A DNA stretch of 64,000 nt from a virus (IMGVR_UViG_3300028883_000047:11681-75680); one strand, 5' to 3'. Counted from the first letter of the stretch, positions 34,846-61,789 are shown. The notes: generated by a model from the letters alone, not told the origin. Translations and numbers: made by a program.

Positions 34846-34923
34846 TGGTAGCTCTCGCCAGGGTCGAACTGGCCACCTCTCGATTATCGGTCGAGTGCTC
34901 TACCTACCATGAGCTAGAGAGCT
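34846..34923 (-). tRNA. tRNA with GAU (Ile) anticodon, second copy; atypical loop CCGATAA (C33)
   Basis: Acceptor AGCTCTC/GAGAGCT, D GCTC/GAGC, anticodon stem CTCGA/TCGAG, T-loop TTCGACC, CCA. Confidence 0.55.
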
Positions 34924-39580: not shown

Positions 39581-39606
39581 AAAAGGGGGCCGAAGCCCCC
39601 TTTTAT
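39581..39606 (-). terminator. terminator hairpin GGGGGCCGAAGCCCCC + T-run
   Basis: Same 16-nt hairpin sequence recurs at 50171-50186. Confidence 0.5.
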
Positions 39607-47377: not shown

Positions 47378-47592
47378 GCCTTTTCTGGTTCCTTGTACTT
47401 AACCATCGCTTGAACGAAGATTTTGTTGTTTGTTGCTGGAATAACGTACTCCATGATTTCGCCGTTGAGAACGTAGCCTTCTTTAATGAGCTCGTTTACA
47501 CCTATTTCAACGTCAAGAGGTGACCCCTTGATAATACGAAATACTGCTGGTCTTGCCTTGTATCTTGTTTCGGTCCACTTCCATTCACTCAT
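47374..47592 (-). CDS. hypothetical protein (72 aa)
   Basis: ORF. Confidence 0.35.
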   Translation of the reverse strand: MSEWKWTETRYKARPAVFRIIKGSPLDVEIGVNELIKEGYVLNGEIMEYVIPATNNKIFVQAMVKYKEPEKA

Positions 47593-48184
47593 CTTCTATT
47601 ACCCTCTCATGCACGTGAATCAATAATCTTTCTTTACTGTCACTATTAGCTACATTAAACACAGGAATACCATTCCGGTCTGCCAACGCTATCGCTTGGC
47701 CAGTACCGCCAGTCATTCTGGTGCGGTCTGCTTCTCTTTCGCAGCCATCTGGAGTCCAGCATACAACAAAGTCCACGGGATCATCAAGGGTCTGACCTAG
47801 CACCTGATAACAATTCCGTGCCATTAACTTCTTAGCACCCTGACTGAGATATTGCCACCGATCGCCATACACTTCTTCCGCTAATGATAATGCTTCAGGT
47901 GTAATCACATGGAAGGGAGAAGGATGATCATTAAACCCCTTCCAGGGAACAAAGATTTCCTTTCTCCCCTCCACAACATCACACCCTCTTTCAAAAGCAG
48001 TGTCAGCACCTTCAGCAGCACCACTACGCAGCACAAACTTGAAATGGATGCCACACAAAACTTGACCAAGGGCGGTCATCCACTCCAGCACTTCCTTTGG
48101 AGCTTTTCGAGAGCCTATACCAGCATATGAAATCATGCGGTCCACTGAAGCATTCCACGTAACTGGTAGTTGAAGGCATGCCAA
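47585..48184 (-). CDS. SLOG-superfamily (DprA/LOG-like Rossmann) protein
   Basis: YAGIGSRKAP..RSGAAEGADTAFERG resembles DprA/Smf/YspA SLOG core. Confidence 0.45.
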   Translation of the reverse strand: MACLQLPVTWNASVDRMISYAGIGSRKAPKEVLEWMTALGQVLCGIHFKFVLRSGAAEGADTAFERGCDVVEGRKEIFVPWKGFNDHPSPFHVITPEALSLAEEVYGDRWQYLSQGAKKLMARNCYQVLGQTLDDPVDFVVCWTPDGCEREADRTRMTGGTGQAIALADRNGIPVFNVANSDSKERLLIHVHERVIEDE

Positions 48185-48251: not shown

Positions 48252-49568
48252 TTAGTTCTCCAAATTAGTCAACTTGCCATACTTTTTGTTTTTGACCCAA
48301 TGACGGAACATTTCGATATACGCTTTTACATTATCATATGATGAAAGACGTCTATCCAGAGCTCGGTAACCAGAATCGATATCGTCAGCGAACTCTTCTG
48401 CGGCAACGTCAATCACTTGTGGATGCCACAGAGCTGTCCAGAAAATACGATCATACTGTTCTTGATCGACGAAAGCAAGAGTACGCTTCAGAGTTATCAT
48501 GTCCATCAAATCTTCGTATGCATCTCGGTCGAAACGGTCCACGCTTTCATCGACTGCTTGTTCAAGCAGCTCCATCATGCGTTCTTCCGTTCCCCTTGTC
48601 ACATCGCAACCGAACACCGCGTATGGTTTATATGCCATTTGGTCATCGTACAACCACAGACTATAAGTTAACCCATTCTTTTCACGAATGAGATCGGTCA
48701 TTGATATTGGAGATAAACTAGACAAGTATCGATTACCTACACGAGCAGCCACCACATTAATGTCACCCATCGTATCGAAAAGCAGAGCGGTCATGACCTG
48801 CTCGGACGGATTATCGATTGTGGTATCTAGCATCGTCGGTTCGGAGATGTAATCACGATACGCCTTTCCGATGTGGTTACACAACTCAGTGCTATCTGGC
48901 GCAGGGAATCGACTGAGCTCCGCGTCTACCGTTGCTGTAATTTCTTCTTTAGTTAAAACAGTCGGGTCGTATGTGATGTTGAACACCATATCACCCTGTG
49001 TCAGAAAGATAGCTTTGATCATCTGAGCGTCTTCCAGGGTGGTAGCGTCGACGGACTCTGGCGTACCAAGAATATTGTCATGTTCAGTATCGTATCCGCA
49101 GAATGCAGGCATCACACTGAAATGGAACATTGTTTGATCATCGTCATTATACCGCTTTACTTCATTGTATACGGTTTTCTTTTCCGTTTGAAATTCTTCG
49201 TCTGTTAACAGAGATAGGTCATTCAGGCCGTAGTTGAGCACTAATCGAATAGCTGTCCGCATCCGCGATGATGTAGTCTTAAACCAGTAGTTGATACGCT
49301 CGTGATCCGTGGACGCGTTGTATGTTCCTTCTTTCTTTAGAGCTTGCATCAGCTCATCGGTAGTGTAGTCTTTACAACACCTGAAACCGAGGTGTTCTAC
49401 AAGATGAGATAGTCCGAATACGTTTCGCCCGGTGATATCGTATACCGCACGCTCGACATGCGCGCCCATTTTGTTAATGATTTCAAATTTGAAGAGGTTT
49501 GATCCTGGCAGGGTGAGAAATTGATATTGCCGACCGTCGATGGTTTCACGGGTGAAGGTTTTATTCAT
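48252..49568 (-). CDS. M16 (pitrilysin/insulinase)-family metallopeptidase-like protein
   Basis: GLSHLVEHLGF inverted zinc motif HxxEH; 438 aa. Confidence 0.5.
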   Translation of the reverse strand: MNKTFTRETIDGRQYQFLTLPGSNLFKFEIINKMGAHVERAVYDITGRNVFGLSHLVEHLGFRCCKDYTTDELMQALKKEGTYNASTDHERINYWFKTTSSRMRTAIRLVLNYGLNDLSLLTDEEFQTEKKTVYNEVKRYNDDDQTMFHFSVMPAFCGYDTEHDNILGTPESVDATTLEDAQMIKAIFLTQGDMVFNITYDPTVLTKEEITATVDAELSRFPAPDSTELCNHIGKAYRDYISEPTMLDTTIDNPSEQVMTALLFDTMGDINVVAARVGNRYLSSLSPISMTDLIREKNGLTYSLWLYDDQMAYKPYAVFGCDVTRGTEERMMELLEQAVDESVDRFDRDAYEDLMDMITLKRTLAFVDQEQYDRIFWTALWHPQVIDVAAEEFADDIDSGYRALDRRLSSYDNVKAYIEMFRHWVKNKKYGKLTNLEN

Positions 49569-49613: not shown

Positions 49614-49964
49614 CTATAGTAGAGAAGGGTTATCAATATCCGTGATATATACAATTCTCTTTTTCAATGACCGTGCAATTTCTATTTCATCTTGAACACC
49701 AACGGAATCTTCCCACCCCTCAATGCACAAAACATGAACCACCTCACACATTTCCATGCCACGAACGCAAAGATCCTTCCAAAATTCATAATCGGTTGGA
49801 AGTGGGTGATCTTTAAGTATTGGATGAATATACGCAAGAACAGAGAACGCAAGAATGTCGTTTGAGGCAAGTTGCGCAACATAACGCTGCGCAACTTTCA
49901 CCCGTTCTTCTATTACGTTCTGGTCAGGATCGCTGTAGGGCGAACTTACAAAAACGTCAAGCAT
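49614..49964 (-). CDS. DUF1937/NDT-fold small protein
   Basis: MLDVFVSSPYSDPD N-terminus typical of DUF1937. Confidence 0.35.
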   Translation of the reverse strand: MLDVFVSSPYSDPDQNVIEERVKVAQRYVAQLASNDILAFSVLAYIHPILKDHPLPTDYEFWKDLCVRGMEMCEVVHVLCIEGWEDSVGVQDEIEIARSLKKRIVYITDIDNPSLL

Positions 49965-50164: not shown

Positions 50165-50190
50165 GGGTGAGGGGGCCGAAGCCCCCTCTT
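50165..50190 (-). terminator. terminator hairpin GGGGGCCGAAGCCCCC (second copy)
   Basis: Immediately downstream of nadV stop; T-rich flank. Confidence 0.5.
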
Positions 50191-50194: not shown

Positions 50195-51622
50195 TTACCA
50201 GTTGGTGGTTTCTTCTACTCGAGCTCGAACTTCACTGAAAGTCCAATCTACTAACTGTTCTCCATCTTTCCAAACAGTCTGCAGAAGTCCATTATCTTGT
50301 CCTTCAGGGCCAGTATAGTACTCACCATCATCACCGCGGTACAGGTCCAGCCGACCCTTTTTACTACGCTTCCCGGAATCAGTGACAGGATCTTTGAATA
50401 CATCAACATCTTTGCCATTGATCTCAGCCCAACTTGCTTTCATCGCGAACTTCAACGTATCGCGGTTAACTTGCTGCAGCAGAGCCCCGCCCTGACCGAA
50501 TACCGCATTGTCGGCACTGAAACCATAACCACGCAGCGCTGCCAGAATATCACGAATGCTATCAGTGGTAATTCCATCACCCTGCAGTATGCGAACATTG
50601 TTCAGCACTTTGTACCCTTTACTATTCACGGTACTGCCAAACGTTGCGTCGAGTAGCATTGCTACCTTGCAAACCACTTCAGCCGGATCGCCACTATCGG
50701 GGCGAACAACAAGCGTAGAACCAGAATTAATCACTTGGGCCTTCAGCTCTTTGCCCCAATATTCTTCAACCGCATTGAAGATGTCGTAGCTGTCAGACAC
50801 CACCGCAACGATAGGGTACTTACCTGCGAACTGTTCTAACATATTCTTGTATGCGTCCAGTTCACCGTCTTTGGTCCAGGTGGTAATTGAGCTGTGTTCT
50901 GCTGCAGGCACGGAGAATGCAGTCACGTCACTTTCGTTGTAGTACTTCATGCTGTACAGCATACCGGTAATGGTATCAGTTCCCATGAAATTAACCAGGT
51001 GAGCGGCGCCACCGATGCCTGCGCTTTCTTTTGAGCTTACGCCGCGCGCGCCGAAATCATGCAGTTTGAACATCAGGCCAGCCATTGCTTCTTCATCTGC
51101 AGTTTCTTTCAGGTACTGGCGAATAACCTGTTTGCTTGACCAGCTATTGGTAGCAACAGTTACCGGATACCAGATTGCCCGCAAAATTGACGTCTCGATG
51201 TATGAGGTCAGCCAAAACGCTTCGGGATCGGTGTTAATAACCTGAACCATTACGTTTCGAGTTCCGACAACGGTGCCTTCAGGCAACGCTCTGATTTCAA
51301 GGGGCAACCAGCCATTGTAAGCAGTCAGGATGTATTCCCAACCTTCGCGGTTGAATGGTTCGCCGTGCAACTGGAACATCAGTTCAGCAGCATTGATTTC
51401 TTCCTGGGTGATTGGTTTGCTCAGATACTTCTTGATCCACATCTGCAGCCCGAAGAAAACAGTACGGTCGTATTTGCCACCACGGCTTTCGATGTAAGAA
51501 GAAACTCGCTTGGTTCCTGGTGGGTATTGCAACCAGTGAGATGCTTTATAACTGTCTACGTCAGCAATGATGCTGTCCAGCAGAGTGTCGATTTGATTGG
51601 TGTTGAGTGCTTGTGCGTTCAT
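50195..51622 (-). CDS. nadV: nicotinamide phosphoribosyltransferase (NAMPT/NadV)
   Basis: 475 aa NAMPT-length protein with characteristic composition; GGAGGATTTCCA SD; late promoter upstream. Confidence 0.75.
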   Translation of the reverse strand: MNAQALNTNQIDTLLDSIIADVDSYKASHWLQYPPGTKRVSSYIESRGGKYDRTVFFGLQMWIKKYLSKPITQEEINAAELMFQLHGEPFNREGWEYILTAYNGWLPLEIRALPEGTVVGTRNVMVQVINTDPEAFWLTSYIETSILRAIWYPVTVATNSWSSKQVIRQYLKETADEEAMAGLMFKLHDFGARGVSSKESAGIGGAAHLVNFMGTDTITGMLYSMKYYNESDVTAFSVPAAEHSSITTWTKDGELDAYKNMLEQFAGKYPIVAVVSDSYDIFNAVEEYWGKELKAQVINSGSTLVVRPDSGDPAEVVCKVAMLLDATFGSTVNSKGYKVLNNVRILQGDGITTDSIRDILAALRGYGFSADNAVFGQGGALLQQVNRDTLKFAMKASWAEINGKDVDVFKDPVTDSGKRSKKGRLDLYRGDDGEYYTGPEGQDNGLLQTVWKDGEQLVDWTFSEVRARVEETTNW

Positions 51623-51712
51623 TGGAAATCCTCCAAGTCAATTTGTGATCCCGCGAAGGTCTATCCTCGTTGGGGTTAAGTTAGTGACCAGTTCCTGGCC
51701 AGCTGTTGAGTA

Positions 51713-51720
51713 TATTTATA
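51713..51720 (-). promoter_or_regulatory. T4-type late promoter box TATAAATA upstream of nadV
   Basis: Exact TATAAATA on minus strand ~90 nt upstream of nadV ATG. Confidence 0.35.
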
Positions 51721-51979
51721 CTCGATTCATTTCATACCGTCAAGGGTCTTATACAATTCCCATTGCTCTATCATAGTCACGTTTTTTGGCGTTCTCACTG
51801 AATATAGCCTTCGTTGTCATTCATTCCACGAATAGCATTATCGCCAAGACCATCGCCTTGAACGTTTAGCCACTCATCTGGAACATCACGCTTCTTACGC
51901 TTTTCGTCTTTGAATTTGCGTTTCAGTTCTTTTGGATCTTTTCTGACAATATCACGAAGTTTCATGTGAGTATTTAGTA

Positions 51980-52930
51980 TTATACTCTAGCAATCGTTGC
52001 GAACCGCTCTCCAGTCTGCCAATGTTTGCCATCAGCCGCCGGCCGAGCATGAACAGTCATGCGGTATCGTCCCGGTTCGACGTTGAGTGATACCTCGATC
52101 CAATCCTCAAGTGTTTTGTCATCGATTTCTTGCTCAGCACCACGGTTCTTGAGATACTCATAATCCGCTGCACTGAACCACCACAGATCGGTGCAAATAG
52201 AGCCCCGATCATCCCCAAGATCCAACACAGGGTTATCATCATCGTCGTACCCTGGGTTGCCTACTGTAATGATGTCAAACATGTCCACATACACGCCAGG
52301 ACATGAGTTGCCTACGAACGCGTGAAGCATGTTCGATTCGGCATAGTCTTGTACGGTTTTCTTGATTTCGCTGCTGTAGTTGACGTATCGGTCTTTGTCC
52401 GCTTCCGGAACGAACGGGCGAAAATCATTGGCGAATACCAATCGACCACTCGGAACATCAATCTCAACTGTGTAGTCTTTGATACCACCTGACTCGGAAC
52501 AAGCGGGAGTATCTTCTACGTACACATGCTGTTTGTTGTGTGGTTTTAACTCGAACAGTTCACCAGTCCACCAAATGTCTACACGTTCACCACACTCACC
52601 ACACGTCTCGGTTCGTATCAGGGTGGGCAACTGAACTTCCTCACCATCCCGATGCCCGTAGAAAAAGAGAGACATGGGATCCAATAGCTTATCGTATATC
52701 CAGCTCCATGGCCGATCATAATCCAATGTCGTATCGGGTAATGCAACAGGGCCTTCTTTCTGAGAGAAATGTCCGTTGAAATCTACGAGAAGTTCTCCAT
52801 TACGGAGCTGGTGTTTCATAGTATCCAGCACTGACGGGTTCGGCGGTAGTTCGTTGTTCGCCCATGCAACCTTTTCCTCTTCCAGGCGCTTCTCATACTC
52901 CCGTTTGAACTTATCCATATCAAAGTCCAT
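51980..52930 (-). CDS. hypothetical protein (~316 aa)
   Basis: ORF; start moved to internal Met (MDFDMDKF) to limit overlap. Confidence 0.4.
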   Translation of the reverse strand: MDFDMDKFKREYEKRLEEEKVAWANNELPPNPSVLDTMKHQLRNGELLVDFNGHFSQKEGPVALPDTTLDYDRPWSWIYDKLLDPMSLFFYGHRDGEEVQLPTLIRTETCGECGERVDIWWTGELFELKPHNKQHVYVEDTPACSESGGIKDYTVEIDVPSGRLVFANDFRPFVPEADKDRYVNYSSEIKKTVQDYAESNMLHAFVGNSCPGVYVDMFDIITVGNPGYDDDDNPVLDLGDDRGSICTDLWWFSAADYEYLKNRGAEQEIDDKTLEDWIEVSLNVEPGRYRMTVHARPAADGKHWQTGERFATIARV

Positions 52931-53474
52931 GCTCTTTCTCCAAGAATACCAAAAGCTCCTCAACCAATAGAGGGCCGGTGTAAAAAGTATCATAGTCATA
53001 CCCACCAGCGTCTAACGTGGCGGTAATCATATTATCAATTTCTGTAGCCTCGTCCAAAGACCTTTCACGGCCCCATTCCTGATATTCTTCTGGACGGTTT
53101 AAAACGATGTTTATATTGTCGTACGTCTGGAATTGTTTATGGACGAGCTTGGTGAACTCAGGCAGTGCAGGCCATGGCCGTGTTCCGTGTTGCTTTTGGT
53201 TCATCTGAGGATATATTGCAGACAATAGAATTGGACTATCGATGATTGCCCAATCAACATGCTCAATCAGACGCTGCAACCGCCAGTTCTGTTCAGCGAA
53301 GATGTACTCCTGCTGTTCCAACATCGTGCCAAGCTGACCAGCATAAACAAGGTCCTTTGCATATTCGGTTGCAAGTTCGACTTTGCAGCCCATTAGCTTC
53401 ATTCTGTAGAACAAACCAGCGGCAGTTGTGCTTTTGCCCGAACCTGGTCCACCGAAGAGGTTGATTACTTTCAT
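52920..53474 (-). CDS. P-loop nucleotide/nucleoside kinase-like protein (PNK-kinase or NR-kinase-like)
   Basis: VINLFGGPGSGKST Walker A close to T4 Pnk (GCPGSGKST) and NadR-NRK P-loops. Confidence 0.45.
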   Translation of the reverse strand: MKVINLFGGPGSGKSTTAAGLFYRMKLMGCKVELATEYAKDLVYAGQLGTMLEQQEYIFAEQNWRLQRLIEHVDWAIIDSPILLSAIYPQMNQKQHGTRPWPALPEFTKLVHKQFQTYDNINIVLNRPEEYQEWGRERSLDEATEIDNMITATLDAGGYDYDTFYTGPLLVEELLVFLEKEHGL

Positions 53475-53800
53475 TCCACGACCCTCACGATTTCGTCCGC
53501 AATGAATTCTTCGATTGGATAATGCCCGTAATCTTCCTCGTACATATGCTTGATGTAGTCACGATACGTCTTCCCTACCCAATATGTGAGTTCTTCATCT
53601 ACTCGATGCCACATGGGACCACGCCACTTATCGTTTTTGTATGTCGTATCCCAACCGCCACTCTCACTATACATCGGGGACTCAGTCGTAGGACGAATGT
53701 AGTCGCCCTTTTCGATTTTATCATCGATTGATAATACACGAAGAGTGCAACCGAGCATCATGTAGTTGATGCCGTCTTTTGTTTGTGGCTTAGACATCAT
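53471..53800 (-). CDS. hypothetical protein (109 aa)
   Basis: ORF. Confidence 0.4.
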   Translation of the reverse strand: MMSKPQTKDGINYMMLGCTLRVLSIDDKIEKGDYIRPTTESPMYSESGGWDTTYKNDKWRGPMWHRVDEELTYWVGKTYRDYIKHMYEEDYGHYPIEEFIADEIVRVVE

Positions 53801-54059
53801 TACCTCTTGGCCGGAGAATGTCCGTCGCGCGCAGGGATGTGATTGTGTGTGGCGATCTCGGACTTATTAGTGCGGAACTGTTGATATACCGAACATACAG
53901 TTCGCCATGTTGCGATCTCTCAACAACAACCTGCAACGTTGCCGGTCCATGAGACCCTTGCGTATGCAGGTGGTAGTTACCAACAGGAACACCCTCCCAC
54001 GGATATGCGTATATTGTTGGTTGTTCCGGTGGCTCTGCCACAACATTATAAGGCATCAT
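53790..54059 (-). CDS. hypothetical protein (89 aa)
   Basis: ORF. Confidence 0.35.
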   Translation of the reverse strand: MMPYNVVAEPPEQPTIYAYPWEGVPVGNYHLHTQGSHGPATLQVVVERSQHGELYVRYINSSALISPRSPHTITSLRATDILRPRGNDV

Positions 54060-55100
54060 TTACAATTTTCCAATCATGTCGTTGATAATGTGAAAGTGAT
54101 CTTCAAATAGCTGATCTTCCATACTCTTGAAGGTACTCAAAGGAACCCAGCGAGCTTTATCAGCATCATCGCTTCCCTTAACTTTTGGCAACGGGCCAGG
54201 AGGTAGTTCAATCAGAAATGCATGAGTGATTGTTCTACCACGAAGGGATCGTGAAGGATGATCATACACGTCTTGTGCCTTGATCGATCCACTCAGAACC
54301 GGTCCAGGAACCTTAATCTTGGTTTCTTCACGCAACTCTCGAACGACTGCTTGTCTGATCCTTTCAGCCGGATCCAGGAAGCCTCCAGGAAGCGCCCACA
54401 AGCCACGACCAGGTTCAGCACGACGACGAACAAGAAGAATATGACCAGACTGAATAACCACAGCATCAACTGTGACAAATGTAGGAGCATATGGAGCACC
54501 CTCCCATGCTTGTTTGTATGTGTTGATGAAGGTGTACTCACGAGTGAGTTGTTCGAACTCAGGGGTTAGAGTGAACGCCTTCAGGTAATCGTGGATCGCT
54601 GTAGGGAGTTTACGGCCAACCTGGAAGTCAAAATCATCATCTTCCATGGTAAACAGAGCTTCACGAACGTCAGATGCATGTATGTCTTCAATGTTGCCGA
54701 CATCGATCAGATCCCACTGAGGAAACATCGACAGGTAGTAAGAACTTTCATCCTTTGAGTGACCGATGATACCAACCTTAGCATCGATACCTGCCAGTGC
54801 AATGACAGTGTCTTGTACCTGCTGAGCCCATTGCTGGTCATTATACAGGATATCGCGAAGAGGAGCGACCATAACGCGATCACGTACGGTCTGAGGTAGC
54901 GAGGTTCGGATCATATCGCCTCGCTCCTGCCACGTCCAGGGGTTTTTGATTGTTCGTGGTTGCATTGCAGACCCAGCAAGAACGATCAGGTGTTCAGCCT
55001 GCTTGAGAGCCTGCTTCATCAACTCAATATGCGCGAGGTGTGGGGGCTGGAAGCGCCCGATGTAAACTATGTAATCATATTTCATTTGGAATTCCTCCAA
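54060..55100 (-). CDS. natV: bifunctional NMN adenylyltransferase / Nudix ADP-ribose pyrophosphatase (NatV-like)
   Basis: IGRFQPPHLAHIELM (NadM-type NMNAT motif) and GGFLDPAERIRQAVVRELREETKI Nudix box. Confidence 0.8.
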   Translation of the reverse strand: MEEFQMKYDYIVYIGRFQPPHLAHIELMKQALKQAEHLIVLAGSAMQPRTIKNPWTWQERGDMIRTSLPQTVRDRVMVAPLRDILYNDQQWAQQVQDTVIALAGIDAKVGIIGHSKDESSYYLSMFPQWDLIDVGNIEDIHASDVREALFTMEDDDFDFQVGRKLPTAIHDYLKAFTLTPEFEQLTREYTFINTYKQAWEGAPYAPTFVTVDAVVIQSGHILLVRRRAEPGRGLWALPGGFLDPAERIRQAVVRELREETKIKVPGPVLSGSIKAQDVYDHPSRSLRGRTITHAFLIELPPGPLPKVKGSDDADKARWVPLSTFKSMEDQLFEDHFHIINDMIGKL

Positions 55101-55142
55101 TAAAGTGAAGCACTCAGGTCTATCCCGAATGCATATAGTATC

Positions 55143-55661
55143 TTAGTTTTTGGGTTTAAAATCAACATGCCTGCGCAGACTTTCTACGCGTGCGAGATCA
55201 CCCTTTCCCCCCAATCCTAGAATGTCAATCATCTCGATGGTTTCTTTTAGGGTCAAACCGTACACGCCATTGGTTTGAACCAGCGGTTGGTCACCGTAGA
55301 AATCGCTATCATCATCCACGATGACATACCTGTCTACTTGACGCGTTTCCAACCACTCATTAATTTCATCACCTCTCCCAATCGAACCGATACGAGCGCT
55401 TCGTGGAGTTACACCTTCAATTGGTGGTTGAAACCATCCGAAAGATGAAAAGAATCCATCGAACCAAGCTGGATCGCGGCCTATTCTCCACGTGGATGAT
55501 ATCACAATCCTAGCATCCGTCTGGTCACATATAAACCGCAATAGACCCACCTTGACGGGGTCTGCGTCATCTAACCGAACAGATCGATTAATCGTGTTTG
55601 CTCCTACTGCATATTCAACGGAATTGAGCACACCATCAATATCGAGGAATAGTATCTTCAT
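55143..55661 (-). CDS. HAD-superfamily phosphatase (PNK-phosphatase-like)
   Basis: MKILFLDIDGVLNS: DxDG(T/V) HAD motif I. Confidence 0.55.
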   Translation of the reverse strand: MKILFLDIDGVLNSVEYAVGANTINRSVRLDDADPVKVGLLRFICDQTDARIVISSTWRIGRDPAWFDGFFSSFGWFQPPIEGVTPRSARIGSIGRGDEINEWLETRQVDRYVIVDDDSDFYGDQPLVQTNGVYGLTLKETIEMIDILGLGGKGDLARVESLRRHVDFKPKN

Positions 55662-56029
55662 GTCATTAATGATTTAAGAAAGGCGAACGTCCACGTCAGT
55701 GACATTATGTGAATAAACTGATCGATGCCTATTGTAACGAAAAAATTATGTCGGTCTTCCTTTTCCCAGTAACTTTTCGCTACGCGAGAAGACACATAAT
55801 CAGTAGCATAGTGTAGAACTGCATTGACGGCTAAAAAGCCAATTGCTAGTATAAACGGAAAAGTAAAGAACGCTATAAAAGCAAACGGCATTGTGTATAT
55901 GGCAACATGGCGAGTAAGCACCATATCATCTGAACTCTTGTTCTTTGCCGTTTCGTCTGACTGTAAGAAGAAATCTCCAATCAAATGAGCAAGCAAAAGA
56001 CCGAACAAATCAATTATCGTTATTTCCAT
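55658..56029 (-). CDS. small membrane protein (DUF3307-like)
   Basis: Start at MEITIIDLF..HLIGDFFLQS; 3 TM. Confidence 0.35.
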   Translation of the reverse strand: MEITIIDLFGLLLAHLIGDFFLQSDETAKNKSSDDMVLTRHVAIYTMPFAFIAFFTFPFILAIGFLAVNAVLHYATDYVSSRVAKSYWEKEDRHNFFVTIGIDQFIHIMSLTWTFAFLKSLMT

Positions 56030-56468
56030 CTCTGTTCCTTTTAAACAAACTTTGCCACCAGCGAATGCTCTCGTTTTCTGGTATCGTGGGCTTATTCGCA
56101 TACTCCGTAGGTGGTGGAGGGGTTTTCTTCTGTGGCTCAATGCGCACAGGAATGTTGTCATACTTAACAACGAATTCTTTTTTGTACCATGCGTTGAGAA
56201 CTTCAAACATGCGGGCGTCGTCTAAATTACCTTCCCATAACATCTTACCCATTCTGAAGTCATACGGTTGACCATCGTTGTTGGGGAATGTTACATGAAA
56301 CGAAGTGTCTGGCTTACCACCAGAGGACGCACCCATCTCATCGATAATCTCTTTTGCTTCCTGAACTGTAACAACGATCTCTTTAGGCAACCCGCCTTTC
56401 TTTTCCGTAGCTTCCACAAGCTCTCGGAAAGAGACTTCGTACTTGTTTTTAATCTTCATTACAGCCAT
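56010..56468 (-). CDS. hypothetical protein (152 aa)
   Basis: ORF. Confidence 0.4.
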   Translation of the reverse strand: MAVMKIKNKYEVSFRELVEATEKKGGLPKEIVVTVQEAKEIIDEMGASSGGKPDTSFHVTFPNNDGQPYDFRMGKMLWEGNLDDARMFEVLNAWYKKEFVVKYDNIPVRIEPQKKTPPPPTEYANKPTIPENESIRWWQSLFKRNRDGNNDN

Positions 56469-56653
56469 TAATCAAAGCTCGATTGTAAGTCATCTACAGC
56501 AAACGATAATCGGTCAGCCCATTTCTCAAGCCCGTCAGCGATGCGCTCATTACACACACTCTCGCTCATTGACGTAAGAGTGTCATTACGAAGCGATTTA
56601 GCTTCATCACGCATCTCATCTGCAATCATTTCAATTACACTATAATTGTCCAT
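56468..56653 (-). CDS. hypothetical protein (61 aa)
   Basis: ORF. Confidence 0.3.
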   Translation of the reverse strand: MDNYSVIEMIADEMRDEAKSLRNDTLTSMSESVCNERIADGLEKWADRLSFAVDDLQSSFD

Positions 56654-57503
56654 TTCTGTAATTCCACCCTAACTTCTCACGAAGGACCTCAAAGTAGTTC
56701 CAGTCATCATTGCGCCAGATATCAACGAACCGGTGTTTGGTGATCTCAACATTCATCTTATGAGTTGAGTACACATAGTTGTTATCTGACAGCAAGCATA
56801 TGTCCTTGACTCGATCAGTAGCATTTGCTTCAATCCGAACCACATCATTTTCACTAACAACAACAGGACGAGAAGAAATAGTATGAGCAGCCAAAGGAAC
56901 GATTTGCATTGCACGAGATGTTGGAGCCATGATAGCACCACCAGCGCTCATTGCGTATGCAGTTGATCCGGTAGCAGTCGTTACGATCACACCATCACCA
57001 GCTTGTCGAGCTACATGCGAGTCGTTGACGAACACATCATACGTCATCTGGTTCTTTCGTGTCTTCGTGGTGACTAAGAACTCGTTAACAGCCACAGAGT
57101 CTATTTTCCTGTAGTCGTTTGGCTGCGTGGTCGATGAGCTGATCAACATTCGACTGTCGCGCTTCCATGGCTTCTCGCCGTTTAGTAGTGACAGCAGTAG
57201 TGTTTCAAAACTTGCATGATCGACACTACCATTCGTTAAGAAACCTAAATGACCGAAGTTAAACCCAATGACGGTACCGAACGGCGTACTTGCAGCAGCT
57301 TTCATTGCAGCCAACATAGTTCCATCCCCGCCAAGGGCGATGAATAACGGTGATCTGTCATCAATTAGGTGCCGGTCATCATATGAAAGAACCCGGCCGC
57401 CCTCACGATCGACCACTCTCCTGATTGTATCGATCATATGGAGAGTGGATGGATCATCTTTAGTATCCAGTTTCGGAACGTACACGACATTGTTAAAAAT
57501 CAT
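56640..57503 (-). CDS. nadK: NAD+ kinase
   Basis: FIALGGDGTMLAAMK (GGDGT) and NFGHLGFL motifs. Confidence 0.8.
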   Translation of the reverse strand: MIFNNVVYVPKLDTKDDPSTLHMIDTIRRVVDREGGRVLSYDDRHLIDDRSPLFIALGGDGTMLAAMKAAASTPFGTVIGFNFGHLGFLTNGSVDHASFETLLLSLLNGEKPWKRDSRMLISSSTTQPNDYRKIDSVAVNEFLVTTKTRKNQMTYDVFVNDSHVARQAGDGVIVTTATGSTAYAMSAGGAIMAPTSRAMQIVPLAAHTISSRPVVVSENDVVRIEANATDRVKDICLLSDNNYVYSTHKMNVEITKHRFVDIWRNDDWNYFEVLREKLGWNYRNGQL

Positions 57504-58426
57504 CAGAGTTCGACCTTTCCGGTTTTCTGGAAGTTAAGCATACGCTCAATAGGCTTGCGGGCCATTCGCATTTGCGTTTCATTTAAGTAATCAATTTTCG
57601 TGCCAAGACCGGCAGAAGCCTGCAGAACTTTTTTAACAGAGTTCAGCTTCATATACGGACACTGATTACACTGACAACCAGAGTAGATAGGCGCTTGACG
57701 GATGTCTAGTTCTGGTCGTTCTTCGCGCATATTATACAGAAGACCGTCTTCGGTTGCAACAAAAACGGTTGCAACACTACCTTTGAATTCTCTGATCCAG
57801 TTGAGCATTCCATGAGTTGACCCAACATAGTCGGCCATCTTGAGAATGGGTAACGGGCTCTCTGGGTGAGCAAGAACGAACTTAGGTCCATCTGTCCATC
57901 CACGCATAGCAGCTTTCAGTTCATCTTCTTTGAACTTATCATGAACCTCGCATACCGCTTCCCACACAGGCATATTGTACCCATACGTGTAGTTTAAGTA
58001 TTCACCCATGTTGCGGTCAGGGGAAAATATTACTTTCTTACCCTGATCGTAGATGTCCTTGATCACATCATCGACGATGCGAGAAGTAACAATGATGTCA
58101 GACATCGCCTTGTGGATTGCAGATGAGTTTATGTACGAAACATGAACGTGGTCGGAGTACTGTTGCCTCCATTTACGAAGTCTGCTGATGTTTGTTTGTT
58201 CAACAAGAGAGCAAGTCGACCCACCATCAGGTAGTATCACTTCTGCTTCGGGGTTAAGGATCTTTGCAGTTTCAGCCATAAAACGAACACCGGCGAAGAC
58301 TATTCGCTTGGGTTTGTGCTCGACAGCTTTCTGTGCAAGGTCTAATGAGTCACCAACGTAGTCAGCCATTTGCTGAACGTCAGGCGTTGTGTAGTAGTGT
58401 GCGAGTATGAGTGTATCTTTGCTCAT
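57503..58426 (-). CDS. nadA: quinolinate synthase A (NadA) homolog
   Basis: LILAHYYTTPDVQQMADYVGDSL, VRFMAETAKIL, HPESP, CxxC near C-terminus parallel E. coli NadA; start at MSKDT with GGAGGATTTCCAG SD. Confidence 0.75.
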   Translation of the reverse strand: MSKDTLILAHYYTTPDVQQMADYVGDSLDLAQKAVEHKPKRIVFAGVRFMAETAKILNPEAEVILPDGGSTCSLVEQTNISRLRKWRQQYSDHVHVSYINSSAIHKAMSDIIVTSRIVDDVIKDIYDQGKKVIFSPDRNMGEYLNYTYGYNMPVWEAVCEVHDKFKEDELKAAMRGWTDGPKFVLAHPESPLPILKMADYVGSTHGMLNWIREFKGSVATVFVATEDGLLYNMREERPELDIRQAPIYSGCQCNQCPYMKLNSVKKVLQASAGLGTKIDYLNETQMRMARKPIERMLNFQKTGKVEL

Positions 58427-58509
58427 CTGGAAATCCTCCAAACGTTTATGGTGCACGGTGGGTCTATCCCACTGGCTTACTATTAGTATATATGGCTACA
58501 CGCTACCCG

Positions 58510-59733
58510 TCAAGGGTCAAGTGTCGAGTGAATATCGTTTCTTGTTGGTCCTTGACTGATATAGTCAAATGTGTTTTGGACGATGCTTTCATTGAATCCG
58601 GAATTATGATGGTGCCATCTACCTCCTTTTATTAAAGAGTAAGTGAACCCATTACGTGGCAACTGGTCCACGCACGTCATAGTTCTAGTCATCTGAACAT
58701 CATAGTATTCATTATGCTCATTACCGTATAGAGCAAAATCTTTACTTGTGACACTCTCGAATAGATCCAAATCTAAAGGTGCATACCGCAATCCATGCTG
58801 CCATTCGTTGTGGACGTTCGTGTTGTCCTTAACCCACTCCGGCATGGATTGTTCGAACGCTAAAGGACCGGCACCATGGCGGGTCGTATACGCTCTGGTG
58901 ACATAATTCACATTCATCTGTCGGAAGTTGGTTACCAATTGTTCCATGATCACCGAAATGTTACGCATTCCTGTGTTGGAACGAGTGACGTGAGGAAAGT
59001 GTCCATAGTCCTGATCTAGTAACAACCCCTGAGCGCCTTCGAAGATTGTATCTCGATCCCAAATTGCATCATAGTATCGAACTTCAACATGATCCATCAT
59101 GTAAGTCAAATCCATAATGAAGTCTTCGAATAGTTGCTCATTGTTGATCACATCACGGAACACTTGTCCTACATTATTGAGATCGACTCGCTGAGGAACA
59201 TACTCTTCACGAAGACGAACAAAGTCTTCATGCAGCATATCTTTATTAATCTGAGCGAGATATGACATCCCCCACACTAGGTGCATTCGCTTACGGCGTT
59301 CAAACGTCTCACCAAAGCCAACACCACAACTACCATGAGGATCTTCACCGCGCATGTGCTCAAGTGATTGATTGATCAGCATCTCAAAAGGAGATGTCAC
59401 CGGCGCATGTGGATGAATATAAACTGTTGGTGCAAAGCCAAAATCCTTAACGAACTGTCGATGCTCACGAGCAAACAGAATTGGATTGACCACAAAGAAC
59501 TCACTAAGGTACGTAGGTGCACCAGCAAACGTACCAGAAGAAAAGTGAGAGAACACATGACGTCTACCATCTGGTGTTACCACCGTATGCCCTGCTTGTG
59601 CGCCACCGTTGGACCGAACCACCACTGGATTGGTGAGAGCGGAAGCATAGTAGTCAGTCATCAACCCTTTGCCTTCATCTCCGTACCCACCACCAATAAT
59701 AGCGACAGCTTGAAACTCTTCAGTAGACATCAC
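58510..59733 (-). CDS. adenylosuccinate synthetase (PurA)-family homolog, divergent (PurZ-like candidate)
   Basis: GGGYGDEGKG P-loop, GGAQAGHT, FEGAQGLLLDQDYGHFPHVTRSNT, TRHGAGP motifs of PurA family; 407 aa. Confidence 0.7.
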   Translation of the reverse strand: MMSTEEFQAVAIIGGGYGDEGKGLMTDYYASALTNPVVVRSNGGAQAGHTVVTPDGRRHVFSHFSSGTFAGAPTYLSEFFVVNPILFAREHRQFVKDFGFAPTVYIHPHAPVTSPFEMLINQSLEHMRGEDPHGSCGVGFGETFERRKRMHLVWGMSYLAQINKDMLHEDFVRLREEYVPQRVDLNNVGQVFRDVINNEQLFEDFIMDLTYMMDHVEVRYYDAIWDRDTIFEGAQGLLLDQDYGHFPHVTRSNTGMRNISVIMEQLVTNFRQMNVNYVTRAYTTRHGAGPLAFEQSMPEWVKDNTNVHNEWQHGLRYAPLDLDLFESVTSKDFALYGNEHNEYYDVQMTRTMTCVDQLPRNGFTYSLIKGGRWHHHNSGFNESIVQNTFDYISQGPTRNDIHSTLDP

Positions 59734-59748
59734 GTGTTCTCCGTTTGC

Positions 59749-60678
59749 TCAGAAGCGAACAACCTTCATTGCATCATCATAGTCGGTGCCTGCATCGAGA
59801 TCCTTGATTGCATCGGCAACTACCAGCGAAGTGTCACCACTCCAGCTTTTTGCAACATCAGCCTTGTCTGCACCATTGACCACCTGGATGATCGAGACGA
59901 TCGTTTCTGCGAGCTTTTCGTGGTCTTCCAACCACACTGCCCGTTCACCAAGAGCTTCACGCCAGGTGGTTTTTACGCGGTCAGGCTTCCAGCGAGCGTG
60001 AGAACCTTCTGCGATCATGATGTGGAAGCAGTGGTACATCTTGCTCGCACGTTCGAGAATTTCTATGAACGGCATGTCCACTTCGATTGCAGCCGAGTCG
60101 CCCATCACTTTGCGGACGGCATCCACGGAAGTCATCGGTGGAGCTTCCTCATCACCAATAGTGAAGATGTAGCCTTTCTTATTCCGCTTCTCAAACGCAT
60201 CAGTTGATGTGTGGAATGCGCCGAAGTAGTAAGGCAGGTCGTACGACTCGAAGCCATTACCGCCACCGTTTCCTTCGATGTAAATCTTCTCGAGCCATTC
60301 GGCAGCAACAAGATCTGCTTCGAACTGTCCGATCTGGAACGGTGCCTTATCGAACATCACAGCATCGCCAACTGCCATTGGCATTACCTGCGGATCGGTT
60401 ACAGGCTTGCGTTCGTAGATTTCCTTGAACAGTGTTGCCAAACCTTCTTTAACAATATGTTCGGCAAGGTACCCCATCGATCCAGTTACGTCAGTAGCGA
60501 TAATGATCGGGGTGCTTTCGGGGTTGAGGTCACTGTCACGAGCCTCCCGCATAGTAACACCGCGCGGATCCATATCAGCATGGAGGCCAGAACTCGTAAA
60601 AATTTGTGACCGTGTTTTCGTTGAAGTTGTGCTGGAATACGTCGTCCAGTCAGCGGATGATGATCTTGAGTAACCCAT
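59749..60678 (-). CDS. von Willebrand factor A (vWA) domain protein
   Basis: IIATDVTGSMGYLAE MIDAS DxSxS motif. Confidence 0.6.
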   Translation of the reverse strand: MGYSRSSSADWTTYSSTTSTKTRSQIFTSSGLHADMDPRGVTMREARDSDLNPESTPIIIATDVTGSMGYLAEHIVKEGLATLFKEIYERKPVTDPQVMPMAVGDAVMFDKAPFQIGQFEADLVAAEWLEKIYIEGNGGGNGFESYDLPYYFGAFHTSTDAFEKRNKKGYIFTIGDEEAPPMTSVDAVRKVMGDSAAIEVDMPFIEILERASKMYHCFHIMIAEGSHARWKPDRVKTTWREALGERAVWLEDHEKLAETIVSIIQVVNGADKADVAKSWSGDTSLVVADAIKDLDAGTDYDDAMKVVRF

Positions 60679-60692
60679 TGTAGTTCTCCTGG

Positions 60693-61733
60693 TTAGTAAA
60701 TGTCATTAATGTTGACGTCAAATGCGATAAACTTGCGCTTACCGAAGCTCTTTTCCAGCGTTTTTTCCCAACCACCATATTCAGACACAGCGTCTGGTCC
60801 AGAAGGTGATCTGATCCAATTTAGCATTGGGTTGGGTACATCCTTTCGGGAAAGAAGAGACATACCAACCAGCGTTGGATCACCTAGGCAACCAATAGCA
60901 ACACCTTTGACCGCTTGTCGATCATACGCCGTGTTGGCTACCTTTTCATCGAAGACTTTGTTAGGGAGAACTTTGAGCAGCTCACGTGGAATTGCCTTCA
61001 GTTTACTTCCAGTCTTCACCGCGAACCACCAACCACCGAGCAAAAACGCTGCATGATTTTTTGGGTCAACAAAAACGGTTGTTGGTAGTATTGAGTTATG
61101 GCAAATACCTACATGATCCAAGAATGTCGCTATATTATACAGCGAACTCGTTATCCACGCAACGTGTTTAGGATCAATGCGGTTATCTGGCATATAGTCA
61201 ATAAGGTCTTGAAGTAAGACGGTTCCTTCGGGTTTTTCAAATACAGCTACCAAACCAATGCTGGTTTTCTTATCAATGAGTTTAACCTTCGGGAAGAGCC
61301 TCTTAAACTCCGTTTCAAGTTTATTGTTAGGATATTTGATTTGTCGGATCATCTTTATGCCGTTATCAAACAAGTCTTCCTGATCCTTGTCGATTACGTA
61401 CATTAGAGTATTGTCGCCGATATACATCTTGCCCATTTCGAATTCACGCATTGTTTTATAACGGAATCGAAAGGTTTTATGATCATGAGTACTGAACGTA
61501 ATTGATGCTTCTCCAGCCCACGAGTCAGTAGCTATTTTACCCTTTGCTGTTTCAGCAAGGTCCATTAGATGCTTAAAAACCGATTCTGCATTGTCGATAG
61601 TGCTGGTATCAGGATGCCACTTTTTGCGGAGGCGCATGAACTGATAACGAAAACTGTCTTTTGAGAATAGTTTTTCAGGATCTTTTGAATCGATCTTGAG
61701 AATTTGTTCGGCAGATAATGACATTGGGTCCAT
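60693..61733 (-). CDS. J-domain (DnaJ-like HPD) protein fused to protein-kinase-like domain
   Basis: RLRKKWHPDTS..ESVFKHLMDL J-domain signature; C-terminal HNSILPTTVFVDPKN kinase-like catalytic loop; GGAGGATTTCCA SD. Confidence 0.5.
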   Translation of the reverse strand: MDPMSLSAEQILKIDSKDPEKLFSKDSFRYQFMRLRKKWHPDTSTIDNAESVFKHLMDLAETAKGKIATDSWAGEASITFSTHDHKTFRFRYKTMREFEMGKMYIGDNTLMYVIDKDQEDLFDNGIKMIRQIKYPNNKLETEFKRLFPKVKLIDKKTSIGLVAVFEKPEGTVLLQDLIDYMPDNRIDPKHVAWITSSLYNIATFLDHVGICHNSILPTTVFVDPKNHAAFLLGGWWFAVKTGSKLKAIPRELLKVLPNKVFDEKVANTAYDRQAVKGVAIGCLGDPTLVGMSLLSRKDVPNPMLNWIRSPSGPDAVSEYGGWEKTLEKSFGKRKFIAFDVNINDIY

Positions 61734-61789
61734 TGGAAATCCTCCAAAACTTTGACCAGAAGAGAAGTCTATCTTCTCTTGGATGAGGA

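Follow-up and report, generated by a model that had tools for sequence, protein, structure and literature searches.

What does a phage gain from carrying a quinolinate synthase and an NAD kinase together with the salvage enzymes NadV and NatV, and how are these genes controlled? The window analysed here is a 64,000-nt stretch of DNA from an uncultured large phage, part of a genome that is probably larger than 200 kb. Its minus strand holds an NAD(P) cassette (50195-61789) with intact genes for NadV, NatV, a divergent NAD kinase and a full-length NadA, and between these core genes lie an AAA_28 P-loop kinase, a HAD_SAK_2 phosphatase and a DUF3307 membrane protein. A sequence-only reading had listed NadV, NatV, the NAD kinase, NadA, the P-loop kinase, the HAD phosphatase and an NAD-dependent DNA ligase, and each of them was recovered where it had been placed or close by.

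7551-9506, minus strand: NAD-dependent DNA ligase, 651 aa, an NAD consumer elsewhere in the window
50169-50188, unstranded: GC-rich hairpin followed by a T-run directly past the NadV stop, a probable terminator closing the NAD cassette
50195-51622, minus strand: NadV, nicotinamide phosphoribosyltransferase, 475 aa (Pfam NAPRTase and NAMPT_N)
51795-51965, minus strand: ORF call, 56 aa, no family
51980-52930, minus strand: 316-aa protein, called as a gene in a sister contig; phrog_33592 (function not assigned), E 4e-17
52920-53474, minus strand: AAA_28 P-loop small-molecule kinase, 184 aa, candidate nicotinamide riboside kinase (Pfam AAA_28, E 5e-12)
53471-53800, minus strand: ORF call, 109 aa
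53790-54059, minus strand: ORF call, 89 aa
54060-55085, minus strand: NatV, bifunctional NMN adenylyltransferase/Nudix protein of the NadM family, 341 aa (CTP_transf_like and NUDIX)
55143-55661, minus strand: HAD_SAK_2 phosphatase, 172 aa (Pfam, E 8e-27; DIDGV motif I read in the translation)
55658-56029, minus strand: DUF3307 small membrane protein, 123 aa (Pfam; phrog_2470 membrane protein)
56010-56468, minus strand: ORF call, 152 aa, weakly conserved in the phage contig L001
56468-56653, minus strand: ORF call, 61 aa
56640-57503, minus strand: NAD kinase, 287 aa, divergent phage clade (Pfam); its start overlaps the NadA stop
57503-58426, minus strand: NadA, quinolinate synthase, 307 aa (PF02445 and NF006878 above cut-off)
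58510-59733, minus strand: divergent adenylosuccinate-synthetase-like protein (Pfam, E 2e-41; phrog_1211)
59749-60678, minus strand: 309-aa protein, phrog_2971; its homologue in contig L002 has a weak VWA_CoxE match
60693-61733, minus strand: 346-aa protein, first gene of the upstream operon, bearing a leader (weak PHROG 'kinase' match)

Judged by their family scores, NadV and NatV are full members of their own families. NadV reaches 638 bits against the NCBIfam model NF006629 (cut-off 405), which places it with the NAMPT-type enzymes, and NatV reaches 461.8 bits against NF003786 (cut-off 397), the model for bifunctional NMNAT-Nudix proteins; a protein of Xanthomonas phage LucasX is 50% identical to NatV. 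For NadA, the PF02445 domain spans the full length (286 bits, cut-off 27, E 3e-85), and the score of 315.6 bits against NF006878 (cut-off 294) is at the equivalog level, while that against TIGR00550 is marginally under its cut-off (262.3 vs 262.9 bits). The sequence-only reading had let its NadA call hinge on the Fe-S ligands, and all three cysteines are kept together with the catalytic residues. C72, C159 and C256 (307-aa numbering) align with the [4Fe-4S] cysteines of T. maritima NadA, which we take to be C81, C168 and C254 and on which the residue equivalence rests. These cysteines are invariant in 74 of 74 aligned sequences, and 11 further active-site columns (His, Tyr, Asn, Ser, Glu, Thr) are conserved in 72-74 of the 74 and in all 7 sequences from a phage context. 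By sequence, the protein has all the hallmarks of an active quinolinate synthase. The cassette end proposed earlier, 58456, did include NadA, but the GTG at this position is not its start, which is the ATG at 58426.

Both domains of the NAD kinase score above the gathering cut-off (PF01513, 37.4 vs 25.5; PF20143, 77.3 vs 23.7), and the GGDGT motif is formed by residues 58-62. Aligned to Y. pestis NADK (4hao), the motifs GGDG, NxGxLGFL, NE and TGSTAY..SAGG, which characterise NAD kinases, are all conserved. The equivalog level is not reached (best NCBIfam score 172.8 vs 316), and among the nearest named proteins of bacteria none exceeds 34% identity. The protein thus reads as a member of the NAD_kinase family from a divergent phage clade with all catalytic motifs kept. 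Its preferred substrate may be NAD, NADH, ATP or polyphosphate. Its start overlaps the NadA stop (TGATG), an overlap that is retained in contigs L226 and L228, and by sequence the two genes are translationally coupled. As an NAD kinase is found at only 1 of 80 NatV loci, it represents a lineage trait and no general need.

The remaining genes of the de novo pathway were not detected. In agreement with the earlier claim that NadA comes without a phage NadB or NadC, neither turned up in the window, nor in any of six related phage contigs; NadB, NadC and PnuC were likewise not found in the window and ~90 related phage loci. Among ~75 window ORFs, mostly of ~100 aa or more, there was no Pfam match to NadB or NadC and no NMN_transporter match that would denote a PnuC-type nicotinamide riboside transporter, and tblastn with E. 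coli NadB and NadC detected neither. NadD and NadE were not seen in the visible 64 kb either. Since NadA alone makes only quinolinate, its contribution would depend on host enzymes.

Taken together, we consider it probable (about 0.72) that the locus is a conserved cassette which keeps up the NAD and NADP pools of the infected cell, an enlarged NARP2-type route under one inherited translational control element; the idea of an extended NadV and NatV route, put forward earlier, is borne out by the gene identifications. NadV would convert nicotinamide and PRPP to NMN, and NatV would convert NMN and ATP to NAD+. By strengthening the oxygen-labile Fe-S step, NadA may lift the flux through the host de novo pathway; NadC, NadD and NadE would come from the host, as would NadB unless iminoaspartate has another source. 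Part of the rebuilt NAD+ would be turned into NADP+ by the NAD kinase, which could feed NADPH-dependent nucleotide synthesis and refill the NADP pool, another possible target of NADase defences. Beside NatV, the AAA_28 kinase may add a step from nicotinamide riboside to NMN. By analogy with NARP2, the cassette may have an anti-defence role.

The NARP2 or KVP40-type pathway (PMC13464706, PMC9503650) likewise has NadV and NatV close together on one strand, leading from nicotinamide to NAD+ in two steps, whereas it is described without the NadA, NAD kinase, NadR-kinase-like kinase, HAD phosphatase and DUF3307 protein found here. Phage NAD routes in the literature of 2022-2026 comprise salvage or reconstitution only (PMC9503650; PMC13464706), and quinolinate synthase and NAD kinase were found in no phage report. 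Compared with bacterial NadA (T. maritima 4p3x, P. horikoshii 1wzu), the phage protein matches in length, domain, cysteines and active site, but it has no NadB or NadC alongside in the window, is coupled to an NAD kinase gene and stands under a leader of the nadV/nadM type.

The cassette is not a one-off but is conserved across independent phage contigs. The order NadA-NADK-(HAD)-NatV-(AAA_28)-NadV occurs in six or more further contigs of uncultured phages, the longest of 363 kb. In the 363-kb contig L001 the order is g375-vWA-PurA-like-NadA-NADK-NatV-NadV, and the cassette was also found in L226, L227, L228, L073, L101, L012 and L002.

Several of the genes also share their initiation region. 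TTGGAGGATTTCCA is present exactly before NadA, NadV and the 346-aa gene (60693-61733) and with one mismatch before NatV, and no further near-match occurs at a gene start in the 64 kb. An identical translation-initiation context had been proposed for these genes; it is real and far beyond chance, although identity holds for three starts and not for NatV. The coordinated expression suggested from it was right but understated, as the shared sequence is half of a structured RNA leader of ~60 nt that lies 5' of the gene and consists of two hairpins, HP1 and HP2, joined by a G-poor linker. HP1 combines a variable stem with a near-invariant GAUAGAC loop. The loop of HP2 displays the Shine-Dalgarno (SD) sequence, and the hairpin reaches up to the AUG or over it; often the AUG lies within HP2. 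The window contains four copies, each at a gene start in the NAD region (NadA, NatV, NadV and one neighbouring operon), and minimum free energy folds give both hairpins in all four.

61731-61789, minus strand: leader copy 1, HP1 loop 61767-61773, cmsearch 60.3 bits, with TTGACG-N17-TATAAA on its 5' side
58485-58513, minus strand: sigma-70-like promoter TTGACG-17-TATACT, directly upstream of leader copy 2
58424-58484, minus strand: leader copy 2 (NadA), HP1 loop 58462-58468, SD hairpin, 52.7 bits, fold z -2.8
55083-55140, minus strand: leader copy 3 (NatV), HP1 loop 55118-55124, SD hairpin GGAGGAATTCC, 59.1 bits, z -3.1
51620-51681, minus strand: leader copy 4 (NadV), HP1 loop GATAGAC at 51659-51665, SD hairpin, cmsearch 50.2 bits

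The promoter at 58485-58513 would make HP1 the 5' end of the NadA transcript. Using a covariance model, we found the leader at 67 of 71 IMG/VR NatV loci, with 115 of 117 matches on the coding strand, at 65 of 80 bacterial nadM/nadV loci and in two cultured phages. Where a start codon lies downstream, 96 of 134 matches precede NatV or NadV. L226-L228 have it in front of NadA, NatV and NadV, and in contig L103 a DUF3307-like gene bears it. Beyond phages, it occurs in Gammaproteobacteria, Campylobacterota, an alphaproteobacterial MAG and a cyanobacterial MAG. In the alignments 87.5% of cells are paired, compared to 52% in shuffles and 35-44% with the partners slid, the pair counts being somewhat inflated in alignments A3 and A4, which were fitted to the covariance model; the bacterial set gives the same picture of covariation as the phage set. 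Rfam returned no family at E <= 1 for the window copies, the two cultured phages and five bacterial loci. The leader is thus a conserved structured RNA absent from Rfam and common to phage NAD genes and bacterial nadV/nadM.

Within the proposed cassette, expression would be divided among three to four units with this leader at the head of each. The leader would have come with nadV/nadM from bacteria and may tune the translation of each cistron to one common signal, either a small NAD-related ligand or a protein binding the HP1 loop. That the leader is a protein operator, with an RNA-binding protein on the HP1 loop repressing or activating translation at HP2, we regard as possible, though tentatively. 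Hairpins bound by proteins usually take this shape, with a defined loop sequence on a stem whose sequence is free; the leader is always found together with nadM or nadV in phages and bacteria alike, and it functions as a transferable module in different hosts. As it travels with these genes, NatV/NadM or NadV are the obvious candidate binders in an autogenous control, a type of translational regulation known for T4 gp43 and gp32. On the other hand, we know of no RNA-binding activity for either NatV/NadM or NadV, and the presence of both enzymes was verified at only part of the loci with a leader copy.

It appears rather unlikely that the leader senses a metabolite directly, as a new class of small riboswitch for NAD+, NMN, ADP-ribose, nicotinamide or PRPP; the ligand would then open or close HP2, so that translation of the salvage genes is on when NAD falls. 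The link to nadV/nadM across distant bacteria and unrelated phages would fit such a sensor, as would the presence of one copy at the ribosome-binding site of each cistron, the frequent location of the AUG within HP2 and loop nucleotides that are near-invariant while the stems covary. To our knowledge, no single host protein spans the taxonomic range of the leader. However, only ~12 nucleotides are conserved, all in the two terminal loops, which leaves very little for a ligand pocket; there was no sign of a conserved internal loop, junction or pseudoknot, and by eye the HP1 and HP2 loops are not complementary to each other. We see only a small chance that the leader represents an undescribed class of NAD-status-sensing regulatory RNA common to bacterial nadV/nadM and the phages that captured them. 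If so, phages would switch on NAD rebuilding, including the NadA de novo and NADK NADP branches, only during destruction of the host NAD.

The leader resembles the NAD+ riboswitches of class I (nadA motif) and class II (pnuC motif) in being a cis-acting 5' RNA of NAD genes, and class II involves the ribosome-binding site, too. It differs in its two simple hairpins with conserved terminal loops, in its genes (nadV/nadM) and in its taxa, and with no Rfam match at E <= 1 we rejected an assignment to these known classes. NrtR operators share the bacterial target genes, as 21-bp DNA palindromes with conserved GT-N7-AC arms upstream of nadV/nadM (PMC2330246), whereas in the leader it is the asymmetric centre that is fixed and the arms that change in a compensating manner, and a copy is found at each ribosome-binding site, only on the coding strand. 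PeSLs (PMC2839356, PMC4122927), described as promoter-terminator composites within T4-like genomes, are similar as units of promoter and stem-loop that move with accessory genes between phages; unlike them, the leader lies between promoter and start codon and has an SD hairpin, a fixed loop, specificity for NAD genes and bacterial occurrences.

For the AAA_28 kinase, the AF2 model (pLDDT 91.8) is most similar to the NadR kinase domain 8x7f_A (TMq 0.72, rmsd 3.6 Å, 16% identity), closely followed by thymidylate and deoxynucleoside kinases, and its profile match in the PDB sequences is a deoxynucleoside kinase. We treat it as a candidate nicotinamide riboside kinase. NARP3 pairs a PnuC transporter with a NadR-like RNK-NMNAT (PMC13464706), and a kinase predicted to resemble the NadR kinase domain beside an NMN adenylyltransferase makes a branch from nicotinamide riboside over NMN to NAD+ plausible here; unlike in NARP3, the kinase is separate (184 aa), the adenylyltransferase is of the NadM and not the NadR type, and PnuC was not found in the window. 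Alternatively, the P-loop kinase and the HAD phosphatase could be a split polynucleotide kinase-phosphatase for tRNA repair and mere passengers of the cassette. The HAD_SAK_2 name refers to RNA-repair proteins, the window holds a T4 Rnl1-type RNA ligase, a CCA-adding enzyme and 21 tRNAs, and in the cultured phages RcXuper and Astolliot natV/nadV adjoin annotated RNA ligase and polynucleotide kinase genes. Apart from the model and the profile match, with no polynucleotide kinase among the 50 best matches listed, the gene positions argue against this. The kinase gene comes right after NatV in over ten contigs (at 9 of 80 IMG/VR NatV loci, plus L226 and L227), while the phosphatase, which recurs in L228 and L002, lies between NADK and NatV in L228. 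A repair function is thus improbable.

A role of NadA outside NAD supply, in another Fe-S dehydratase-type reaction or linked to the adenylosuccinate-synthetase-like enzyme, is very unlikely. NadB and NadC were found in no phage locus, and the divergent PurA-like gene, whose product likewise uses aspartate, adjoins NadA in the window and in L001; but it is not beside NadA in L002, L226, L227 and L228. Furthermore, NadA scores above its equivalog cut-off, retains 14 ligand and catalytic columns that are invariant in 72-74 of 74 sequences, is 67-69% identical to the housekeeping NadA of Chromobacteriaceae and shares its leader with NadV and NatV in at least seven contigs. That same identity, and NadA, NadC and NADK matches in the GenBank phage collection that all look like mislabelled bacterial DNA, could suggest a bacterial origin of the NadA/NADK stretch, through a chimeric assembly or the flank of a prophage, but this is hardly credible, as the stretch shares strand and G+C with its surroundings, overlaps phage-type neighbours, is flanked by phage genes on both sides, carries the cassette's own leader and was assembled independently in the same arrangement from different samples, in contigs of up to 363 kb.

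The adenylosuccinate-synthetase-like protein itself scores 43.8 against the PurZ model NF038379 (cut-off 300) and 118 against the PurA models (cut-off 402); with a match at the PHROG level only, an assignment to PurZ of the aminoadenine pathway was rejected. Its gene, of uncertain membership in the NAD cassette, is a conserved neighbour that is syntenic in L001, L084 and L087.

Every gene between 47.5 and 62 kb of the window lies on the minus strand, and the G+C content of the cassette region is uniform (0.44-0.48). Family scans upheld each of the gene identifications made for the NAD module in the sequence-only reading, and the NAD-dependent DNA ligase at 7551-9506 proved to be real. Gene starts were revised using the gene calls of a sister contig and ribosome-binding sites.

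Genes of the NAD cassette in the window
50195-51622, minus strand: NadV, nicotinamide phosphoribosyltransferase (NAPRTase and NAMPT_N domains; NF006629, 638 bits, cut-off 405)
52920-53474, minus strand: AAA_28 P-loop protein, between cassette genes (family scan)
54060-55085, minus strand: NatV, NMN adenylyltransferase/Nudix (cytidylyltransferase and Nudix domains; NF003786, 462 bits, cut-off 397)
55143-55661, minus strand: HAD_SAK_2 phosphatase, between cassette genes (family scan)
55658-56029, minus strand: DUF3307 membrane protein, between cassette genes (family scan)
56640-57503, minus strand: NAD kinase (two Pfam domains above threshold; NCBIfam equivalogs all below cut-off, best 173 versus 316)
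57503-58426, minus strand: NadA, quinolinate synthase (PF02445, E 3e-85; NF006878, 316 bits, cut-off 294)

Several small ORFs interspersed among these genes gave no match in the family scans. Judged from their sequences, the enzymes that convert nicotinamide via NMN to NAD+, make quinolinate and phosphorylate NAD are intact. The order and coupling of the cassette genes are conserved.

The alignment of NadA to solved structures of the enzyme spans its full length (E 1e-47), and the HxY, YxN, TS, CxxH, HPE and ST motifs are in register. The three cysteine ligands of the Fe-S cluster, whose possible absence had been raised in the sequence-only reading, are all aligned and conserved. In an alignment of 74 relatives, which takes in all seven sequences with verified phage context, the 14 cysteine and motif columns are kept in 72 to 74 sequences; the protein therefore looks functional and under purifying selection. 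Its closest named relatives are the housekeeping NadA proteins of Chromobacteriaceae and allies (Vogesella, Chromobacterium, Laribacter; 67-69% identity). Dozens of metagenome-only proteins are closer (70-84% identity) and, in a rough neighbour-joining tree, share a clade with the proteins of the window and of a 204-kb phage contig. The description of NadA as orphaned holds at every locus examined, as tblastn with the E. coli NadB and NadC sequences found no match in the window or in ~90 related loci. Searching GenBank phages by tblastn for NadA, NADK and NadC returned low-identity matches only; these were rejected as precedents, since they have bacterial nadB/nadC/nadA neighbours or are tiny fragments and were thus treated as mislabelled bacterial DNA. 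Several phage-labelled records (OR846844, OR848117, CAKLQH020000046, MT838004 and others) carry nadK as well as nadA alongside nadC; they include fragments of Listeria phages LM 4-11-1 and LM 4-14-1, Acinetobacter phage MD-2021a contigs and some human-gut 'Bacteriophage sp.' entries, and look like bacterial DNA.

The GGDG, NxGxLGFL and NE motifs and the glycine-rich TGSTAY..SAGG segment of the NAD kinase align with the Yersinia enzyme (4hao). Its relatives form a metagenome-only clade (35-75% identity), while named bacterial kinases reach at most 34%; unlike the bacterial-looking NadA, it therefore belongs to an old, fast-evolving phage lineage of its family. The start codon of the kinase shares one base with the stop codon of NadA (TGATG), which suggests that the two are translationally coupled. 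For the AAA_28 P-loop kinase, a single-sequence search of the PDB gave no informative match, and a profile of 40 homologues matched only a deoxynucleoside kinase among the PDB sequences (E 9e-4). Its AlphaFold model (pLDDT 91.8) is closest in both TM-score and rmsd to the NadR kinase domain (8x7f_A; TMq 0.72, 3.6 Å, 16% identity), followed by thymidylate and deoxynucleoside kinases (TMq 0.53-0.67). The NadR-like model and the fixed place of the gene after NatV make a nicotinamide riboside kinase our best guess for this candidate.

The cassette recurs in other contigs, one of them from IMG/VR and three metagenome contigs reached via NadA relatives.

Related cassettes (x, other gene)
L001, 363-kb IMG/VR contig: g375-vWA-PurA-like-NadA-NADK-x-NatV-NadV (34-68% protein identity)
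L226, metagenome contig: NadA-NADK-x-x-NatV-AAA_28-...-NadV-M16 peptidase
L227, metagenome contig: NAD ligase ... NadA-NatV-AAA_28-...-NadV ... Macro
L228, metagenome contig: NadA-NADK-HAD_SAK_2-NatV-x-NadV

NadA also adjoins NatV in two further loci (L073 and L101), lies near a HAD_SAK_2 gene in L002 and stands at the head of a gene in the 204-kb contig (L012). In the 80 IMG/VR loci with the most similar NatV, NadV was present in 61, the AAA_28 kinase in nine, each time directly downstream of NatV, NadA in three and NADK in one. Hence, the NadV and NatV core is common, and the extension by NadA and NADK is characteristic of one group of large phages. A search for related IMG/VR loci seeded with exact NADK peptides gave no match, because such seeds are too strict for a fast-evolving protein. 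In L226, an intein-interrupted IMPDH gene (3894-6158) lies upstream of the cassette.

The cassette is thus real and recurrent, related to NARP2 and modestly novel at the gene level; the more surprising part is a leader shared by its units. The common initiation context that had been noticed before several of the genes is present as TTGGAGGA(T/A)TTCCA before the ATG of NadA, NadV, NatV and a gene for a 346-aa protein (60693-61733), and is part of a structured leader. A hairpin (HP1) lies 19-24 nt upstream of each shared sequence, with the loop GATAGAC every time and stems that vary and compensate (AGAGAA/TTCTCT, GTGG/CCAC, CATTCGG/CTGAGTG, CGAG/CTTCG); no further hairpin of this kind occurs in the 64 kb. 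Minimum free energy folding gave two hairpins in all four copies, the second (HP2) with the Shine-Dalgarno GGA in its loop and the AUG paired or abutted. The copies at NadA and at 61.7 kb are preceded by TTGACG-N17-TATAcT/TATAAA, so that the transcript begins with the hairpin. A structured leader at the ribosome-binding site is therefore common to the cassette units.

When IMG/VR was scanned for the exact DNA pattern, 55 stretches came up, most of which had neither a stem nor a start codon and were discarded as chance; the 13 with both lie before NatV, NadV, NadA or small unknown genes. A covariance model built from 14 seeds picked with the exact pattern, whose E-values are rough owing to a shortened calibration, matched 67 of 71 IMG/VR NatV loci (115 of 117 matches on the coding strand) and 65 of 80 bacterial nadM loci (78 of 79). 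A start codon follows 134 of the phage matches; these lie before NatV (51), NadV (45), NadA (three) and the 346-aa gene (two), and the remainder before a radical-SAM-like gene, a DUF3307-like gene and members of a few small families. In L226-L228, NadA, NatV and NadV are each headed by the leader, as are natV and nadV alike in the cultured Xanthomonas phage LucasX and Rhodobacter phage RcXuper; with default filters, the model did not find it in phages DLP_6, Astolliot, RSP15 and phiN3. In bacteria, including Pseudoalteromonas, Thiothrix, Hahella, Marinobacter, Microbulbifer, Sulfurovum, a Kordiimonadaceae MAG and a Gloeobacterales MAG, the matches sit directly 5' of nadV or nadM. As bacterial and phage genes carry it alike, the phages inherited the leader along with the genes, and NadA gained it in this lineage.

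In two phage contigs, the leader (L074 8286-8354, L104 5126-5182) precedes the radical-SAM-like gene, which encodes a 310-aa protein with a CxxxCxxC motif; in a third (L103 9905-9953), it precedes the gene for the DUF3307-like membrane protein, and the small leader-headed families measure 81, 108, 117-125 and 152 aa. The leader precedes a NadA 66% identical to that of the window in a 12.6-kb Burkholderiales MAG contig binned as bacterial (L149 2027-2998), which may be a phage contig inside a bacterial bin. By eye, the third pair below the GAUAGAC loop is a purine-purine mismatch (CAGG...CC(A/G)G) in many gammaproteobacterial nadV copies (e.g. L158 4069-4130, L161, L191, L163) but not in the window's phage copies.

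The secondary structure was evaluated on the hit alignments as fitted to the covariance model. Standard pairs filled 87.5% of pair cells in the phage set and 87.3% in the bacterial set, versus 51.7% and 56.5% with the 3' letters shuffled and 35-44% and 34-47% with the partners slid by 1-3 columns. Cells changed on both sides numbered 549 and 306 (185 and 102 after shuffling), and none of 500 shuffles in either set matched the observed pairing and double-change values. In 193 distinct instances, the HP1 loop is GAUAGAC in 88% and GA(A/C/G)AGAC in the rest, the linker has a median length of 12 nt with 10% G, and the HP2 loop reads GGAUU, GGAGU, GGAAC or GGAGC.

A CsrA-type site was considered for the GGA in the HP2 loop, but as a general explanation it fails on the presence of the leader in lineages that, to our knowledge, lack CsrA. 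A PeSL cassette, as described, has a different order of parts and was rejected, since the leader also occurs in bacteria. NrtR operators, which in some bacteria regulate nadV/nadM, were rejected as well: these 21-bp palindromes have conserved arms (PMC2330246), the opposite of the pattern in the leader. Kissing loops, or a pseudoknot that would join the GAUAGAC loop to the Shine-Dalgarno loop or linker, were rejected because inspection by eye showed no complementarity. No Rfam 15 family matched the window copies, two cultured phages or five bacterial loci at E <= 1, and a full-text search with partial journal coverage returned no report of such an element. Because of this incomplete coverage, we put the probability that the leader is undescribed at about two in three.

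At the gene level, a survey of phage NAD systems names only NadV, NadM and NadR (PMC9503650), and the phage routes named against NAD-depleting immunity are NARP1-3, by salvage or reconstitution (PMC13464706). As far as can be told, quinolinate synthase and NAD kinase are thus new to phages; the literature searched, with most subscription journals outside its coverage and hence weak evidence, reported no phage NadA or NADK. The cassette may keep NAD(P) up during infection, which would benefit the NAD-consuming ligase of the phage as well as nucleotide synthesis that depends on NADPH; in analogy to NARP2, it could counter NADase defences. NadA might reinforce the host's de novo pathway at the labile Fe-S step. 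The leader would couple translation of all units to one signal, with a ligand and a protein as rival readings. With a de novo enzyme plus an NAD kinase in a conserved phage cassette, the contest would widen to include quinolinate synthesis and the NADP pool; the question also arises why NadA is the sole de novo step worth carrying. The leader offers a testable handle on the control of salvage pathway II (nadV/nadM) in many bacteria outside the NrtR, NiaR and NadR regulon work; its occurrence in cultured phages (LucasX, RcXuper) and culturable Pseudoalteromonas, Thiothrix, Hahella and Marinobacter makes experiments feasible now.

The window belongs to a large phage and encodes 21 tRNAs, a T4 Rnl1-type RNA ligase, a CCA-adding enzyme, a gp30.3 homologue, PTH2 and a Macro domain. 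Megablast of the cassette region against GenBank phages (50,697 records) gave no match and no close relative; the best NatV match there, from the Xanthomonas jumbo phage LucasX, is 50% identical. A gene trio adjoins the cassette in the window (58510-61733), in L001 (4921-9019) and in two further loci (L084, L087). It encodes the 346-aa unknown protein, a phrog_2971/VWA-like protein and a divergent adenylosuccinate-synthetase-like protein, and its first gene bears the NAD leader in the window and L001. The synthetase-like protein matches the PurA model at residues 8-296 only and lies below the PurA and PurZ cut-offs; an identity as PurZ was rejected on the curated value. Just downstream of the cassette, Macro domain, DprA/SLOG-like, M16 peptidase and DUF1937 nucleoside-deoxyribosyltransferase-like proteins (45222-45677, 47585-48184, 48252-49568, 49614-49964) are candidates for ADP-ribose or NAD-conflict functions; the DprA/SLOG-like protein has a homologue in L001, and the M16 peptidase is also beside NadV in L226.

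The tRNA genes form two minus-strand arrays (163-1104 and 28364-34923), with Asp, Pro, Lys, Thr, Asn and Ile duplicated. The RNA ligase, a calcineurin-like phosphoesterase, the PTH2 peptidyl-tRNA hydrolase and the CCA-adding enzyme make up an RNA-repair and translation set (12297-13439, 14021-14752, 17615-18013, 39606-40751); in the cultured phages RcXuper and Astolliot, annotated RNA ligase and polynucleotide kinase genes directly adjoin natV/nadV. A low-G+C island at ~19000-24000 (0.41 versus ~0.46) encodes a capsule-synthesis-like protein, an MptE-like protein, methyltransferases and two or three sulfotransferases, and thus resembles a block for the modification of glycans or small molecules. 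Genes for two HNH endonucleases and for the T4 gp30.3 homologue are found at 13465-13968, 18013-18423 and 18554-19036.
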